Of a stretch of 64,000 nt of DNA, positions 3,001 through 9,000 are shown piece after piece. Made by a program: the position numbers. Every line of letters begins with the position of its first letter. The stretch's first letter is position 1. The stretch comes from Escherichia coli O127:H6 str. E2348/69. GTDB taxonomy: Bacteria > Pseudomonadota > Gammaproteobacteria > Enterobacterales > Enterobacteriaceae. Location: assembly GCF_000026545.1 (NCBI RefSeq), contig NC_011601.1, one strand, 5' to 3'.

Positions 3001-6000
3001 ACGACGAGATTGTGCAGCATCGCAGAGTCGCCCTGTTGGAGTTGATCCAAAAGCATATTCGCCAGCGCGATCTGATGGGGCTTATTGACCAACTGGTAGT
3101 ATTACTGGTTACAGAGTGTGCTAATGACAGCCAGATAACTGCGCTGTTAAATTACATTTTACTGACTGGTGATGAAGCGCGTTTTAATGAGTTTATCAGT
3201 GAAATTACCCGTCGACTGCCACAACAAAGGGAGCGAATAATGACGATTGCAGAGCGAATTCATAATGATGGATATATAAAAGGGGAACAGCGCATTCTTC
3301 GATTGTTTTTGCAGAATGGGGTAGATCCTGAATGGATACAAAAGATTACCGGACTTTCGGCAGAGCAAATACAGGCATTAGAGCAGCCCTTGCCTGAGCG
3401 TGAGCACGATTCATGGCTCGAGAGCTAATATGGAACTATCGCTATGCGCCTCCAGCATATCCAGCACCTGATCCCACTGGGTAATTTCCACCGGACGCGT
3501 CATCGACGGTACTGGCGGCTGGGCTTTACGTTGCGCGACAAAATAACCCGAACGCGGCTACGGAGTGATGAGGTTCATCGTCTCCAGCGTCTGATACGCC
3601 TGCTGCACGGTACTGATGCTGACGCCGTGCTCCTGACTTAAGCAGCGTACCGACGGCAATTTCTCCCCGTGACGATACAGCCCTTGCTCAATCCGCTCGG
3701 CAAGCAGAGTTGCCAGACGTTGATAACGCGTCATGCTGTATTCCTTATTTGGACCATACAGAGAGAAAAAACGGTACAGATGAGGCTAAAAAACCGGATG
3801 CAGATGCTGTTTTAATCTGTCTGTATGTTAAATAAAACTAATATTTGCATCTGTATTGTGAACTGCCAGAAGACGGATGATTAAGCCTCTGAAAGATGAG
3901 GAGGCAGCAGATGGAATTTCACTAAAACAAAGCCAAAGCGCCGTTTATCGGTTTCGTACAACTCTGGCAAGCGGTGAGGAGCTGGTGGCGGCAAATGCAG
4001 ACCCGACGGGTGTTACAGCAGATGAGTGATGAGCGGTTGAGGGATATCGGGTTACGCAGGGAGGATGTGGAGTGAGAGGGCAATTCCCCTTCCCGTATGG
4101 GGAAGGGGAGAGAAACTTAGCGTGGCGTTTTGCTACTAATCACCCCAATAAACTCCTGCACCTGCTTTTGTTTACGCGCCGACAGCTTGCACACCTGGCG
4201 CAGTGACTGCATCAGTTCGCTCTCTTCGGCGGCGGGTGGTTGGGCGGTGAGGACAATACAGCCTTCCATCACTTTGACATCTACCGCCGTGCCGGTGGCA
4301 AAACCGGCGGTTTCCAGCCACTGACCTTTCAGGGTGATGGCGGGAATACGGCTGTAATCCGGGTAGCGGCTCGCATAACTCACGGTTAATTGACGGTTAT
4401 TTGCCGGGGAGACTTCTGCTTCGAACGGTTGTGCAATAGAATGCGTGTCAGTCATGATTACTATTCTCGTGAAATAGGGATTGTGATGAGCGGTGCGGGT
4501 GTGTTGGCGCACATTCGCACCGCGCTAAATACCTGGATATATCATCAGTAAATACAGGGAAAGTCCAGCTAAAAATAGAAAATAATAAAAGCGTTACTGG
4601 AAAGATCTGGAAGAGAAATTAACGTTAATTCAGAATGGCCGGATAACAAAGTGTATCCGGCCTTCATAATTAATTTAAAGCACTCATATGATGTTCTTTA
4701 AAATTCTCTGCCTGTGCCAGCACACCTATATAAACATCATCATTTGCTACTGGCGGGAATTTATGCTTGTGTAGAAGCAGAATAAGTTCAACTTTCAGTT
4801 TCGCTTTAATATCATCGCGTTTACTCCAGTCAGGATACTTCGATGTGTTGTCAACCACGCTTTTCATCTCTTTTGCCAGTAATTTTTGTAATAACTGGAA
4901 CTTCGTTGCCGGAAGTTTGAACTTGTTAATTCCAGTGGCTAACGCGCTGGAATTTAACAGCAAAATGGTACGCTTTTATCACAGCAAAGATGAGAGGGAG
5001 ATGATGGCGTTTTTGGTAGCGGCTATCAGGCGTGACTAATATCTTAGATATACATTCATAACGCCCGGTACAGCGTTACCGGGCGTTATGGAGATAATTT
5101 ATCATTTTTACATATATTGTGGGCTTTGCTCATAGGTTTTTAGTAGATGCTCATTTAACGCACCTTCACCGTGCAAGGTTACCAAGAGATTGCAACGTGC
5201 TCGGGTAAAACCTACATAGAGTCTCTTTATATCCTCACTCAAATCATCGCTATTATCCCGTGTTCTCGCTGCATCAATAATGACAACTGAGTGAAACTCA
5301 AGTCCTTTGCTGCTGGGTAATGGCATAACAGAAATACGCTCTTGTTCTGGCGTCCAGGACTTTTTATCTGCAGAGCTTACAATAAGATTAAAGGGGATGT
5401 TTTTCGATTCAAGTACAGAACTTAGAGAGTTAGAAAGGGTGTGAGTTGATGGACTTAGTATAGCAATTTCAGACCATGGAATCCCTTGTTCATTTTGCTC
5501 TGTAATCCATTCGACTGCTCTTGCTATTTCTTCGTCCTGTGTGTCGAAATGTTCAAGGTTGGGATAATCGCCATTCATTCCTCCCGCAGCAGGTTTATGA
5601 TAGGTTAAAGAACTATCGATATGGCTATTAAGATAATTAAATGCAATACAACTGGCAAAGTGTAGGATTTGCTGTGTGTTTCTATAATTTATATTAAGAA
5701 TGGTTGTGCGTCCTGTCGCTTTAATATCTACGCTGGACAGTGTAAAGTCTAATGCTTTCTTTTTTTGGTAAATTGACTGAGCATCATCATAAAGGAATAG
5801 CAAATTCTCGTCCTGAGAGTCAGTCATTTTTGCCAGGATTTTTAACCATTCGGGCTTAAAATCATGTCCTTCATCAATTAATACAGCGCTGTATTGTTCT
5901 GGTTTTATTTTTCCTGTCTTGAAACCATCAGTCAACGCTAGCTCCATATTTTCAAAAATATTATCCCCTTCTGGAATAGTGATCTTGTTTTCTTTAATTT

Positions 6001-9000
6001 GTTGGAAACACCAAGCATGAAAGTTTTTAACCTTTATTTTCTCTGCAAAGGGATGATTGATGAACATCGACCGAAGTTTTTTGGCTAAAGTAATATTGTA
6101 GCAAATGACAAGTATTGGCTTTTCGCTGTCATTTTTTTTCGCTAATTCCTGACAGCGATGATAGAGGATCAATGTCTTCCCTGAACCTGCAACACCATGA
6201 ATGATCCGGTGGCCATCTCTCATACTTCTGGCAAGTTGTTCCTGTTGAGTATCCAGGATAGAAATGATGGTTGGTGCATCGACACTAAATTCATCACGGT
6301 TTTTACTTCTCTTTTCCCTTTCTATTCTGACATCGGGGTATAAGTGCCATCTAACCCTGTTCAACTGTTCTTGTGTAGCATGACATTTGAAGTCATATTT
6401 AATCAACGAATGTATTTTGGATGAAACATCCTCTTTTGACATGAATTCATTTATTTCGTCTTTGCAGATGATGAGATCTGATGGGAAGATCCCGAGCAGC
6501 TCTTCTTGAGTAAATTTATTATTTAATGCTTCTCGTGTAATATTACTAAAGTAGACGCCATATCCATAGGGGAAAAGAAGATTGCCATTGTAACGATCAT
6601 CCTGTTGGCACAATAGGCGGGCTTTTTTTAACTGGTTTACAGCTTCGAAAGCATATCGCCTAACTTGTTCTATCGGATTCTTTAAAGATTGAATACCATT
6701 TTGTGTCTCATACAACACATTAGACTTGTTGGCTTTTTTTATTTTTGTAATAAACCAATCTTTTACCTCGAGAAAAATAATGCCTTTTTCTGGCGAAAGT
6801 ATCATAAAATCTGGGTGAAGATGCTTATCACCCGTGGGAATGTCATACCAACAGCAGCACTCTTCGCCTAGTCCTCTTTCCAGAATTCTTGCCAGCCTTT
6901 TCTCTCCGGCAGTAATTTTATCGTTGCAGCTACTGATTGTTGGGATTATTGTTGCCATGTTAATCTCTTGTATTCGTGTTGATTATGATTCAATCGTTGT
7001 TAATTTATTTGCTGATTGTTTTGGTTGATGATTTTTCTTTTTTGGACTGTACCAGAATGTTTGCATATTTGGAAATTAATACATCTATTACGCCTCAATA
7101 GGACGTCTATCATATAAATTATTTTTAAAAGTATGAGTGGTGGCAATGTAATTACATCTGTGTTCAGGAAATTATGGCAGAATTATATTTTTAATTTTTA
7201 TGGGTGTTGGAACGAAATAAAATAGTGAAGCGAACGGAAAATGATAGGGTTTTATCCTCGTCCGCTTCGTTTTAGTAGGTTAAGGGTATTACTTCCTCAA
7301 CCCCGCAAACGCTGCCCGAATCTCATCCTCCGGCAACTGAATCCCGATAAACACCATCGTGCTATGCGGTTTTTCATCGCCCCACGGGCGGTCCCAGTCG
7401 GCGCTGTAGAGGCGCTGGACGCCCTGGAACAGCAGGCGGTTAGGTTCGCCGTCAATCCATAGCATCCCTTTGTAACGCAGTAGTTTATCCGCCGACTCCA
7501 GCAGCAGGTTTTCCATCACGCGGGAAACTTCGCTGATATCTACCGGGTAATCCAGTTCCACCACAATCGACGAAATATCGTTTTGTTTGTCTGCAATAAA
7601 GTGGAAACGTGGCTTGGTGCTGACGACGTTTTCTTCCAGCATAAAACCGTTGGTATTGAACAGCAGGCCCAGGTCGATGTCGCCGTGGGTGACGGTGTAG
7701 ACCGGTGCACGGGCGTTGATGCGCGCCAGGCGTTCACGCAGTTTTTCTGCTTCGCCTGCGACGTCGGTTTTCGTCAGCAGAATACGGTCGGCGTAGCCAA
7801 CCTGGGACTGGGCGATGGTGAACTGGTTCATCTGCTCATCGGCATGTACCGCATCCACCAGCGCAATCACGCCGTCCAGCAGGTAACGCTGGCATAAAAT
7901 CTCATGGGAGAAAAAGGTCTGAATAATCGGGCCGGGATCGGCCATGCCGGTGCATTCAATGACCAGACGGTCGAACTGAATATTGCCCTTGTCGAGATTA
8001 TCCAGCAGGTCGAGTAGGGCGTCTTCCAGCTCGTTGGAGCGCGAACAGCAGATGCAGCCGTTGGTCAGCGTTTTGATCTGCGTGGCGCGATCGCCAATCA
8101 GTTGATCATCAACGGAGACTTCGCCGAATTCGTTTTCAATCACGGCAATCTTGTAGCCGTGTTGTTCGTTAAGAATATGGCGCAGCAGGGTGGTTTTTCC
8201 TGCGCCTAAAAAACCGGTGAGTAGGGTAACTGCAATCGGGTTCATGCTCTCTCCATTAACAACAGCGCATACCGCCTTTACCATCGCCGCCGTAGCGCGC
8301 GTTCTGGCGTTCGCGGAAGAATTCTTCATAGCTCATGTACGGCTTGTCGGGATGGTTGGTCTTCATATGCTCGACGTAGTTGTCGTAGTCTGGAATGCCA
8401 ATCAACATCTTCGCCGCCTGGCCGAGATATTTTTTTGCCTGTCCTAAGTTACCAAACATAGTTCACTCTGATAAGAACAAAGCCCCGCCGAAGCGGGGCT
8501 AAACACGGTTAGTGGTGCGAAGAGATCTTCACGCCGCCTTCCGGGATTGGAACGTACGGTGTTTCTTTGTCAGTACGTTTGTCGCTGTTACGCACCGCAA
8601 GCCAGGTTTTGAAACCGTAGAAGATGATGCTGTACACCACAATCAGGAACAGAATACTCAGGCCTGCGTTGGTGTAGTTGTTCACAACGATGTGGTTCAT
8701 GTTGGCAATCTGCTGCGCCGTCAGGTCAGTACCGTTAGCAATCTTCTCTTTGTACTGGCTTGCCATGTAGAAGAAGCCTTCCATCTGCGGGTTGGTGCTG
8801 AACAGTTTCAGGCCCAGCGCCCAGGTGGTGCAGATAAGCAGCCATACAGCCGGAACAACAGTTACCCAGATGTATTGGGTGCGCTTCATCTTAATCAGTA
8901 CAACGGTGCCCAGTACCAGCGCCACGGCTGCCAGCATCTGGTTGGAGATACCGAACAGCGGCCACAGGCTCTTAACGCCGCCCAGCGGATCGACCACGCC

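Follow-up and report, generated by a model that had tools for sequence, protein, structure and literature searches.

We analysed a 64,000-nucleotide stretch of the chromosome of Escherichia coli O127:H6 str. E2348/69 (NC_011601.1; hereafter the window) that holds the immigration control region (ICR), a defence island between yjiN and yjiA, and within this island a gene encoding an NERD nuclease fused to a UvrD-like superfamily 1 (SF1) helicase. The island is anchored by yjiN (1043-2323) and by yjiA (7289-8245), which is followed by yjiX and btsT, and outside the variable part the window is colinear with E. coli K-12 and NC101. Positions 2400-8400 were 100.0% identical to three independent E2348/69 assemblies. 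RefSeq lists, in sequence, yjiN, an intact gene of the Rpn family, a GntR-family pseudogene with an internal stop and no C-terminus, a gene for a 42-aa DUF1127 protein, symE, a type I restriction endonuclease-domain pseudogene (N-terminus missing), a gene for a 616-aa '3'-5' exonuclease', yjiA, yjiX, btsT and tsr. The GC content is 0.30-0.42 across approximately 4500-7350 and 0.50-0.59 on either side. The position between yjiN and yjiA, together with strain-variable content and breakpoints at the framework genes, places the locus in the ICR; eight ICR configurations were compared (K-12, NC101, CFT073, KE50/N3, Santai, WB61, EC17GD31 and E2348/69), and all diverge directly past the yjiA stop codon. 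A preliminary description of this DNA had reported that mcrBC, hsdRMS and mrr were absent, that few genes were left between the rpnD position and yjiA, and that mdtM was missing between yjiN and rpn. The absences were borne out when the island proteins of K-12 and NC101 were searched against the whole window by tblastn, with no match for mdtM, yjiT, mcrB, mcrC, hsdS, hsdM, mrr, K-12 hsdR, the NC101 endonuclease or brnTA; the gene content agreed with the open reading frames (ORFs) and the RefSeq annotation of the identical E2348/69 record, and the loss of mdtM at this position was confirmed by blastn. Collectively, these results indicate that the locus is quite probably an allelic state of the ICR that was reached mainly via decay.

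The part of the island next to yjiA consists of two gene stubs and one intact gene. The first stub is a 3' remnant of hsdR of about 87 codons on the minus strand (4670-4932), which was identified by blastn, junction reads, protein comparison and the PADLOC type I restriction endonuclease profile (REase_I). It lies in a 97-codon ORF (4670-4963, minus strand) whose C-terminal 69 codons are 98.6% identical at the amino acid level to residues 1019-1087 of NC101 HsdR, and which matches REase_I at profile positions 963-1027 of 1029 (E=4.4e-25). The preliminary description had taken the whole ORF as an hsdR-like tail; the homology to the HsdR C-terminus is genuine, but only about 87 of its codons are hsdR-derived, and these span an internal in-frame deletion of 99 codons. 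Compared with the corresponding end of intact NC101-type hsdR, the stub is 95-98% identical, and the same tail sits within a full-length hsdR in approximately 1000 of the 5426 complete E. coli genomes on which our prevalence counts are based. The second stub (4933-5039, plus strand) holds the last 32 codons of a Fic-family gene, with its stop codon at 5037-5039. It was found in a distant-mode search with the block 4933-7287 alone, in which positions 4944-5039 were 84.5% identical at the nucleotide level to the 3' end of a Fic-family coding sequence in about 116 genomes; in two of these, N3 and KE50, the Fic gene belongs to the ICR itself, where a type I system is followed by GmrSD, Fic, brnA and yjiA. 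The retained Fic C-terminus reads ALEFNSKMVRFYHSKDEREMMAFLVAAIRRD followed by the stop codon, and homology halts exactly at that codon. The Fic core with its catalytic motif is absent, as the stretch that carries this motif in N3 Fic (FFFDGNKRTSRH) falls upstream of the 32 retained codons. The hsdR and fic stubs are joined tail to tail, which would be the product expected from one deletion between two island genes. Past the fic stop codon the helicase cassette proper starts with a perfect 14-bp inverted repeat (5057-5090, in the element at 5055-5092), recovered in a repeat search, which forms a terminator-like hairpin between the Fic stop and the helicase stop. The nuclease-helicase gene itself (5108-6958, minus strand) was identified with Pfam and PADLOC; it is intact and encodes 616 aa. 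Its upstream region (6959-7287, minus strand) is AT-rich (~30-37% GC) and contains a sigma-70-like site, TTGCCA-17-AATAAT, at 7146-7118.

The part of the island next to yjiN has also decayed. At the left edge of the remodelled stretch lies an intact rpn gene of 306 aa (2508-3428, plus strand), supported by its ORF, RefSeq, NCBIfam TIGR01784 (159.5 bits against a cutoff of 52.1) and 93.8% nucleotide identity to the K-12 rpnD region; it is the positional ortholog of the K-12 rpnD pseudogene. This gene, which adjoins the left breakpoint and is intact here in contrast to K-12, is a recombination-promoting nuclease gene. It is followed on the minus strand by a 5' fragment of yjiR (3430-3734; blastn against NC101 and K-12, and a PGAP pseudogene) that retains 102 codons of the winged-helix (GntR winged helix-turn-helix) part and that, on translation, carries the nonsense codon Q59* and a 4-codon deletion. 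Alignment with K-12, NC101, KE50 and Santai showed that yjiS (DUF1127; 3911-4075, plus strand) has a premature stop at codon 5 (TAA at 3923-3925, GAA to TAA); its start reads MEFH*, and PGAP calls just the 42-aa downstream remainder. Breakpoints in blastn placed a cassette slot between yjiS and symE at 4080-4137 (no strand), which is empty here apart from a 58-bp spacer with a GC-rich hairpin; the slot holds yjiT-yjiV-mcrCB in K-12 and GmrSD in Santai and CFT073, and NC101 has the identical spacer. The toxin gene symE (4117-4455, minus strand) is intact (RefSeq; NCBIfam equivalog NF010128, 222 bits against a cutoff of 132). The antisense antitoxin small RNA symR (4450-4526, plus strand) overlaps the symE start at 4455 and matches Rfam RF01809 over the full model (1-77; 88.9 bits against a gathering score of 61), so that a SymE protein and an overlapping antisense SymR, the two parts of this type I toxin-antitoxin system, are both present. 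The yjiR, yjiS and hsdR remnants had been recognised in the preliminary description, while a fourth stub, the Fic 3' end at 4933-5039, had been overlooked.

To place the breakpoints, we relied on blastn and junction reads against NC101. Window positions 1-3429 correspond to NC101 interval 9052-12481 and end one base beyond the rpn stop; 3430-4880 correspond to 13818-15281 at 95% identity and include the yjiR 5' end, yjiS, symE and the final ~210 bp of hsdR; 4870-4932 correspond to another hsdR piece at 15568-15630; and homology resumes at window position 7288 with NC101 position 23405 (yjiA). The first junction (J1, 3429/3430) marks a deletion of approximately 1336 bp that took out the spacer between rpn and yjiR together with three quarters of yjiR at its 3' end; it shows a 3-bp AAT microhomology. 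The second (J2, 4870-4880) is a 297-bp in-frame deletion of exactly 99 codons inside the hsdR tail, at imperfect 11-nt direct repeats, CTTTT(G/T)CCAGT, in the sequences CTTTTGCCAGT and CTTTTTCCAGT. The third (J3), between the hsdR and fic remnants, lies within 4927-4943, and the fourth (J4, 7287/7288) lies directly past the yjiA stop codon, where K-12, NC101 and the window diverge at the same base. The breakpoints in the region are thus 3429/3430, 4080-4137 (the yjiS/symE slot), 4870-4880, ~4927-4943, 5039/5040 and 7287/7288; positions 4660 and 5100, which had been offered among the junctions, are not breakpoints. Around the low-GC block, no transposon or integration scars were found in the form of flanking direct or inverted repeats, insertion sequences (IS) or recombinase or integrase genes; short chance repeats and the terminator hairpin were the only repeats there. 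From their junctions, the losses at J1, J2 and J3 appear to be microhomology or illegitimate deletions that left no att or IS scars. The base that follows the stop codon of rpn (3428-3430) is a breakpoint in both E2348/69 and KE50, and CFT073 homology also ends there (CFT073 position 37274); in CFT073 it resumes only at a 93-bp 3' piece of yjiS, and yjiR appears to be missing.

The hsdR stub also indicates which type I restriction-modification (R-M) system vanished from the locus. No functional system of this type remains, as about 87 hsdR codons are left and no similarity to hsdM or hsdS was found in the 64-kb window. That a former type I R-M system had been deleted or replaced, as the preliminary description suggested, holds in that the relic is real and 95% colinear with NC101 over the interval that runs from yjiR to the end of hsdR; the K-12 set of EcoKI hsdRMS, mcrBC and mrr, against which the loss had been drawn up, was not the lost content. 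The K-12 gene order that had been given for this purpose was itself correct against the fetched MG1655 interval (yjiN-mdtM-rpnD(pseudogene)-yjiR-yjiS-yjiT-yjiV-mcrCB-symE/symR-hsdS-hsdM-hsdR-mrr-yjiA). In both K-12 and CFT073, however, hsdS lies beside symE, and the tail is unlike their hsdR: blastn of the stub against the hsd genes of K-12 (type IA) or CFT073 (EcoAI family, type IB) gave no match. NC101 HsdR (1087 aa) has 23% identity to KE50-type HsdR and 25% identity over a local stretch to K-12 HsdR, and gave no match with CFT073 HsdR. We had first assumed that the stub was of type IB, since the B2 strains CFT073 and A0 34/86 carry type IB systems (PMC2481252, PMC8287963); this was ruled out, because hsdS abuts symE in CFT073 (symE-hsdS-hsdM-hsdR, EcoAI family) and neither DNA nor protein matched. 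By homology, the lost system appears to be of the NC101 type, with a separate HsdR family and the gene order M-S-R. Because the stub belongs to this family, the K-12 restriction genes never occupied the ICR of the E2348/69 lineage. In EC17GD31 (locus 9071-9906), a fragment from the 3' end of hsdR has become fused to one from the 5' end of hsdM while the endonuclease gene and brnTA are retained, which is an independent decay of an NC101-type type I system.

We then compared the island with those of other E. coli genomes. NC101 (phylogroup B2) has the order yjiN-rpn-yjiR-yjiS-symE-hsdR-hsdS-hsdM-restriction endonuclease-brnT-brnA-yjiA, lacks mdtM and has an empty yjiS/symE slot. The helicase block occurs in 100 of the 5426 genomes (1.8%), 78 of them at >=99% identity and approximately 22 near 96% (Santai type), and at least 29 genomes align colinearly with E2348/69 over 6 kb as a single piece. 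The arrangement is therefore a minority one with clear remnant signatures and not a common ancestral state, the outcome that the preliminary description had named as speaking against its reading. The J1 yjiR deletion is more frequent, with the junction probe whole in 202 genomes; among them KE50 carries the J1 deletion, the same Q59* and the same 4-codon deletion, yet has an entirely different island. The mdtM-less yjiN/rpn junction (2358-2362), which lacks 1.56 kb relative to K-12 including ytiE, occurs in 676 genomes including NC101, KE50 and CFT073. In Klebsiella aerogenes, a major facilitator superfamily (MFS) gene lies beside yjiN, which suggests that mdtM was deleted in the mdtM-less E. 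coli lineage. The O157:H16 strain Santai has intact yjiR and yjiS, GmrSD between yjiS and symE, and then symE-hsdR'-fic'-helicase-yjiA; its module is colinear with window positions 4138-8400 at 96.6% identity and has the same J2, J3 and J4. The yjiR deletion thus occurs with more than one island content, and two lineages with different gene content upstream of symE share the helicase module. Because the module coexists with an intact yjiR in Santai, and the yjiR deletion with another island in KE50, the mdtM loss, the yjiR deletion and the helicase module are independent events, the first of them being the most widespread. In the comparison of E2348/69 with Santai, the synonymous divergence (dS) of the helicase gene was 0.058, its non-synonymous divergence (dN) 0.012 and dN/dS 0.20, and the dS of the adjacent yjiA was 0.089. 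Judged by these dS values, the module has been diverging between E. coli lineages for about as long as its core neighbour yjiA. WB61 has a near-empty ICR in which the region upstream of mdtM is joined directly to 138 bp beside yjiA (locus 8915-9139). These 138 bp correspond to window positions 7150-7287, the yjiA-proximal end of the helicase upstream region, at 96.4% identity, and the WB61 island probably arose by deletion from one of the helicase type, in a lineage that carries mdtM.

Next, the 616-aa protein was examined. Pfam assigned an NERD domain (residues 17-110), an AAA_19/UvrD N-terminal domain (236-398) and a UvrD_C domain (421-596), and residues 1-599 matched positions 1-547 of the 559-position profile of the PADLOC candidate family PDLC01087 'NERD+UvrD' (E=2.8e-140). 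In an alignment of 40 homologs (41-64% identity), D50, E64 and K66 of the PD-(D/E)xK triad and the Walker A motif GSGKT (258-262) were invariant, as were motif II, DEGHD (362-366), and motif VI, TRA (585-587). The low dN/dS of 0.20 indicates that the gene is under purifying selection. In the AlphaFold2 model (mean pLDDT 80.3, pTM 0.59), a disordered linker (208-245) lies between the nuclease domain and a compact SF1 core; a structure search returned UvrD, PcrA and Rep as the top PDB matches, with the Schlafen-11/14 nuclease-helicases and GajB also among the hits, and a sequence search of the PDB returned only generic UvrD, PcrA, Rep and HelD matches. None of the NCBIfam equivalogs reached its cutoff against the helicase. 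Identities as Nhi, AbiO, GajB or the DRT (reverse transcriptase)-associated helicase were considered and rejected, the PADLOC profile matches being partial or weak only. More than 7000 homologs were found at E<=1e-20, nearly all of about 615 aa; the closest relatives outside E. coli are 62-65% identical and come from Leclercia, Scandinavium, Enterobacter and Salmonella. Homologs are also found on plasmids of E. coli and Vibrio at ~39-41% amino acid identity (the E. coli plasmids, of 74-190 kb, at ~39%), and the NERD-helicase family is common on Ralstonia replicons (112 records). E. coli FMU073332 (locus 6971-10197) has a distant paralog, a '3'-5' exonuclease' of 581 aa with ~75% nucleotide identity over just 95 bp, which lies in a degraded type VI secretion locus beside an AAA-ATPase/ATP-dependent nuclease pair and a gene for a GIY-YIG nuclease.

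The genomic context of the homologs was informative for the age of the gene at this site. In all four of the enterobacterial contexts examined (Leclercia, Salmonella, K. aerogenes and Atlantibacter), orthologs with 52-64% amino acid identity lie inside the yjiN-yjiA island. Leclercia has btsT-yjiX-yjiA-helicase ... yjiN, with orientation and adjacency as in E2348/69; Salmonella Enteritidis has yjiA-brnAT-helicase-hsdS; K. aerogenes has yjiN ... yjiS-yjiR-helicase; and Atlantibacter has helicase-GmrSD-yjiN. The preliminary description had called the helicase gene the one foreign gene of the locus; this is misleading, as four other enterobacterial genera hold orthologs in the same island and the divergence of the gene is about that of yjiA. 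From its synteny, the helicase is probably an old resident that was left behind by deletion and not a recent replacement insert. In Serratia fonticola the helicase gene adjoins a ScoMcrA-type HNH gene, and in Photobacterium it lies beside PLD-helicase and methyltransferase genes, next to smpB. A small gene for an S-adenosylmethionine-dependent methyltransferase (~190-200 aa) lies divergently upstream in Photobacterium damselae (6245-6820) and Vibrio coralliilyticus (6076-6684) and is absent from the enterobacterial loci; in Vibrionaceae, this methyltransferase may be a partner gene of the NERD-UvrD homolog.

Together, the junctions and comparators show that the present state arose through several small illegitimate deletions and point nonsense mutations, which left intact symE/symR and an intact, constrained nuclease-helicase gene. 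The ancestor would have carried symE/symR, an NC101-type hsdM-hsdS-hsdR system, further genes ending in a Fic gene, and the NERD-UvrD helicase gene beside yjiA. One illegitimate deletion (J3) from the hsdR 3' end to the fic 3' end would have removed hsdM, hsdS, most of hsdR and the rest up to the last 32 fic codons; a second, in-frame deletion of 297 bp (J2) between the 11-nt imperfect repeats trimmed the hsdR stub; and a 1.3-kb microhomology deletion (J1) together with a nonsense codon inactivated yjiR. A nonsense codon truncated yjiS, and mdtM had been lost earlier, in the wider lineage. We regard the loss of the restriction system in a single deletion from such an hsdMSR-Fic-helicase ancestor as likely. 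As to function, the protein would use its SF1 motor to engage or move along foreign DNA or DNA replication intermediates and so bring its N-terminal PD-(D/E)xK nuclease to the target, in the manner of Nhi-type immunity. Its domains, invariant active sites and association with defence islands make a stand-alone nucleic-acid defence enzyme plausible. The more inclusive proposal, that the gene is an ancient syntenic ICR resident as well as a stand-alone candidate defence enzyme with an Nhi- or Schlafen-like mode, and the sole barrier left in E2348/69-type strains, we put at about even. Our confidence in the decay history and the proposed function taken jointly is good, though well short of certainty.

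Several observations weigh against this interpretation. An intact ancestor with hsdMSR ... fic-helicase-yjiA was not found among the complete E. coli genomes, all 100 helicase-bearing genomes already hold the hsdR stub so that no intermediate is preserved, and an exact 22-mer across the fic-stop/hairpin junction had no match in the GTDB species representatives. The Fic stub is just 84.5% identical to the known ICR Fic genes, and its source allele is probably not among them. Import of the fic'-helicase block by flanking homologous recombination would also account for the low GC and for a boundary that coincides with the stop codon of yjiA. With respect to function, the profile of Nhi, a validated system, matched just around Walker A; no homologs were found in phage genomes, which gives no hint of a counter-defence arms race; and the literature searched held no experiment on defence by this helicase family.

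The main alternative to such a decay history is cassette replacement, the view of the preliminary description, in which the low-GC fic'-helicase block was imported from another lineage or species by homologous recombination with crossovers in yjiA and near the hsdR 3' end, swapping out hsdMSR, the restriction endonuclease gene and brnTA in one step. This is the published model for the ICR, in the summary of Sibley and Raleigh that PMC2481252 gives. The GC content of 0.30-0.41 against 0.50-0.59 in the flanks agrees with import, but low GC is normal for defence genes, including intact hsd genes at the ICR. The right boundary falls exactly at the yjiA stop in every comparison, homology to the Fic-bearing islands stops exactly at the Fic stop codon, and in Leclercia the helicase gene is flanked by yjiA and a partial yjiA duplicate (CobW_C; positions 9957-10235 and 9972-10442 of two metagenome contigs), as expected with recombination through yjiA. 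The hsdR'/fic' joint, however, offers no homology for a legitimate crossover and resembles an illegitimate deletion. Moreover, no donor is apparent, since the closest helicase outside E. coli is just 64% identical, and E. coli lineages differ in the module to roughly the same degree as in yjiA. On balance, we consider replacement in one step unlikely and retain decay by small deletions as the preferred history.

A second alternative concerns the helicase gene rather than the history: it could be a housekeeping or accessory DNA repair-recombination helicase, or a selfish addiction-type gene, whose position in the island is incidental. Among solved structures, UvrD, PcrA and Rep, which serve in repair and replication, come closest to it, its PGAP name is 3'-5' exonuclease, the V. 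coralliilyticus homolog lies among ordinary metabolic genes beside just the small methyltransferase gene, and the literature searched reports no experimental defence phenotype. A repair role fits poorly with a gene that is not core, being present in 1.8% of complete E. coli genomes, and whose Enterobacteriaceae copies always lie within a defence island by type IV or type I restriction genes. The family is also a member of the PADLOC candidate defence set and is carried by plasmids at ~39-41% identity, and its architecture parallels that of the Nhi and Schlafen nuclease-helicases. An incidental position is possible but doubtful, and a role in defence remains our preferred reading of the gene. 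Finally, an assembly or annotation artefact, with the stubs and junctions produced by misassembly of repetitive or poorly covered sequence, had nothing in its favour; it was refuted and its probability is negligible, as the E2348/69 assemblies, three in number and independent, agree at 100% identity over 6 kb, at least 29 further complete genomes align colinearly as a single piece, and J2-J4 recur at 96.6% identity in the different lineage of Santai.

The E2348/69 ICR is an ordinary example of a well-known variable locus, and its pseudogenes are already annotated in the record. The ICR has been described as a replaceable-cassette defence island (PMC2481252, in its summary of Sibley and Raleigh) and corresponds to hotspot 36 of Hochhauser et al., between yjiA and yjiO (bioRxiv 10.1101/2022.06.09.495481). 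Type I systems occur in just 36% of 8424 enterobacterial ICRs (2025 review, PMC12707154), and an ICR without hsd, mcrBC and mrr is therefore not unusual. For the particular configuration, the fic stub and the NERD-UvrD gene as a recurrent ICR occupant, no earlier description was found in the literature searched. Likewise, no experimental report of phage or plasmid defence by the NERD+UvrD family was found there, and the sole functional NERD report retrieved concerns an unrelated RNA endonuclease, ZwsA. Because symE/symR and the nuclease-helicase gene are the sole functional remainder, E2348/69 has no classical restriction barrier at this locus; a prototype enteropathogenic E. coli strain without type I or type IV restriction at the ICR is useful for genetics and for plasmid and phage work. 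The locus itself provides a clean dissection of ICR turnover, which here would have proceeded via small microhomology deletions that left datable stubs and not via wholesale cassette swaps. The helicase is the better lead: its conserved family of ~615 aa occupies this island in at least five genera of enterobacteria, is carried by plasmids as well, and is a candidate single-gene defence.

Compared with ICRs in general, that of E2348/69 shares the site, the anchors yjiN ... yjiA, the boundary at the yjiA stop, the variable defence content, and symE/symR and rpn. It differs in that it has no type I or type IV system and instead carries four pseudogene stubs and the NERD-UvrD gene; Table 3 of the ICR review (PMC12707154) lists types IA, IB and ID, Mrr, McrBC and GmrSD, and the NERD-UvrD gene is not among them. 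The closest relative is the NC101 ICR, which is 95-99% colinear from yjiN through the final ~210 bp of hsdR and has the same mdtM-less junction and the same empty slot, whereas 7.8 kb of NC101 (most of hsdR, hsdS, hsdM, the restriction endonuclease gene and brnTA) are absent from E2348/69, which has 2.36 kb of fic' and helicase in their place, with yjiR deleted and yjiS truncated. Among defence proteins, Nhi of Staphylococcus and the Nhi-like systems resemble the NERD-UvrD protein in joining an N-terminal nuclease and a C-terminal SF1 helicase in one polypeptide; the NERD domain is listed for Nhi-like systems (PMC10952713), and Nhi is reported to act on phage replication complexes involving the phage single-stranded DNA-binding protein (PMC10732053). 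However, the Nhi and AbiO profiles cover only ~60 residues around Walker A of the helicase (E ~1e-9 to 1e-13; for PADLOC Nhi E=2.9e-9, with the best stretch at residues 235-295), a match too local for homology to Nhi across the nuclease and helicase domains, and the NERD-UvrD helicase is a different family that is analogous only. GajB of Gabija and the SF1A helicases UvrD, PcrA and Rep share the helicase core fold and motifs. In contrast to Gabija, the nuclease is fused in cis, the GajB profiles match parts of the core only, and no GajA (OLD/TOPRIM) partner was found, the adjacent ORFs being gene stubs only; in contrast to UvrD, the helicase core is much shorter (~370 aa). The group III Schlafen proteins (SLFN11/SLFN14) share the layout of a nuclease followed by an SF1 helicase (Foldseek matches 7zel and 9uie, and a weak Pfam SLFN-g3_helicase match), but at 10-12% identity and with a nuclease of another fold family this likeness is one of analogy only.

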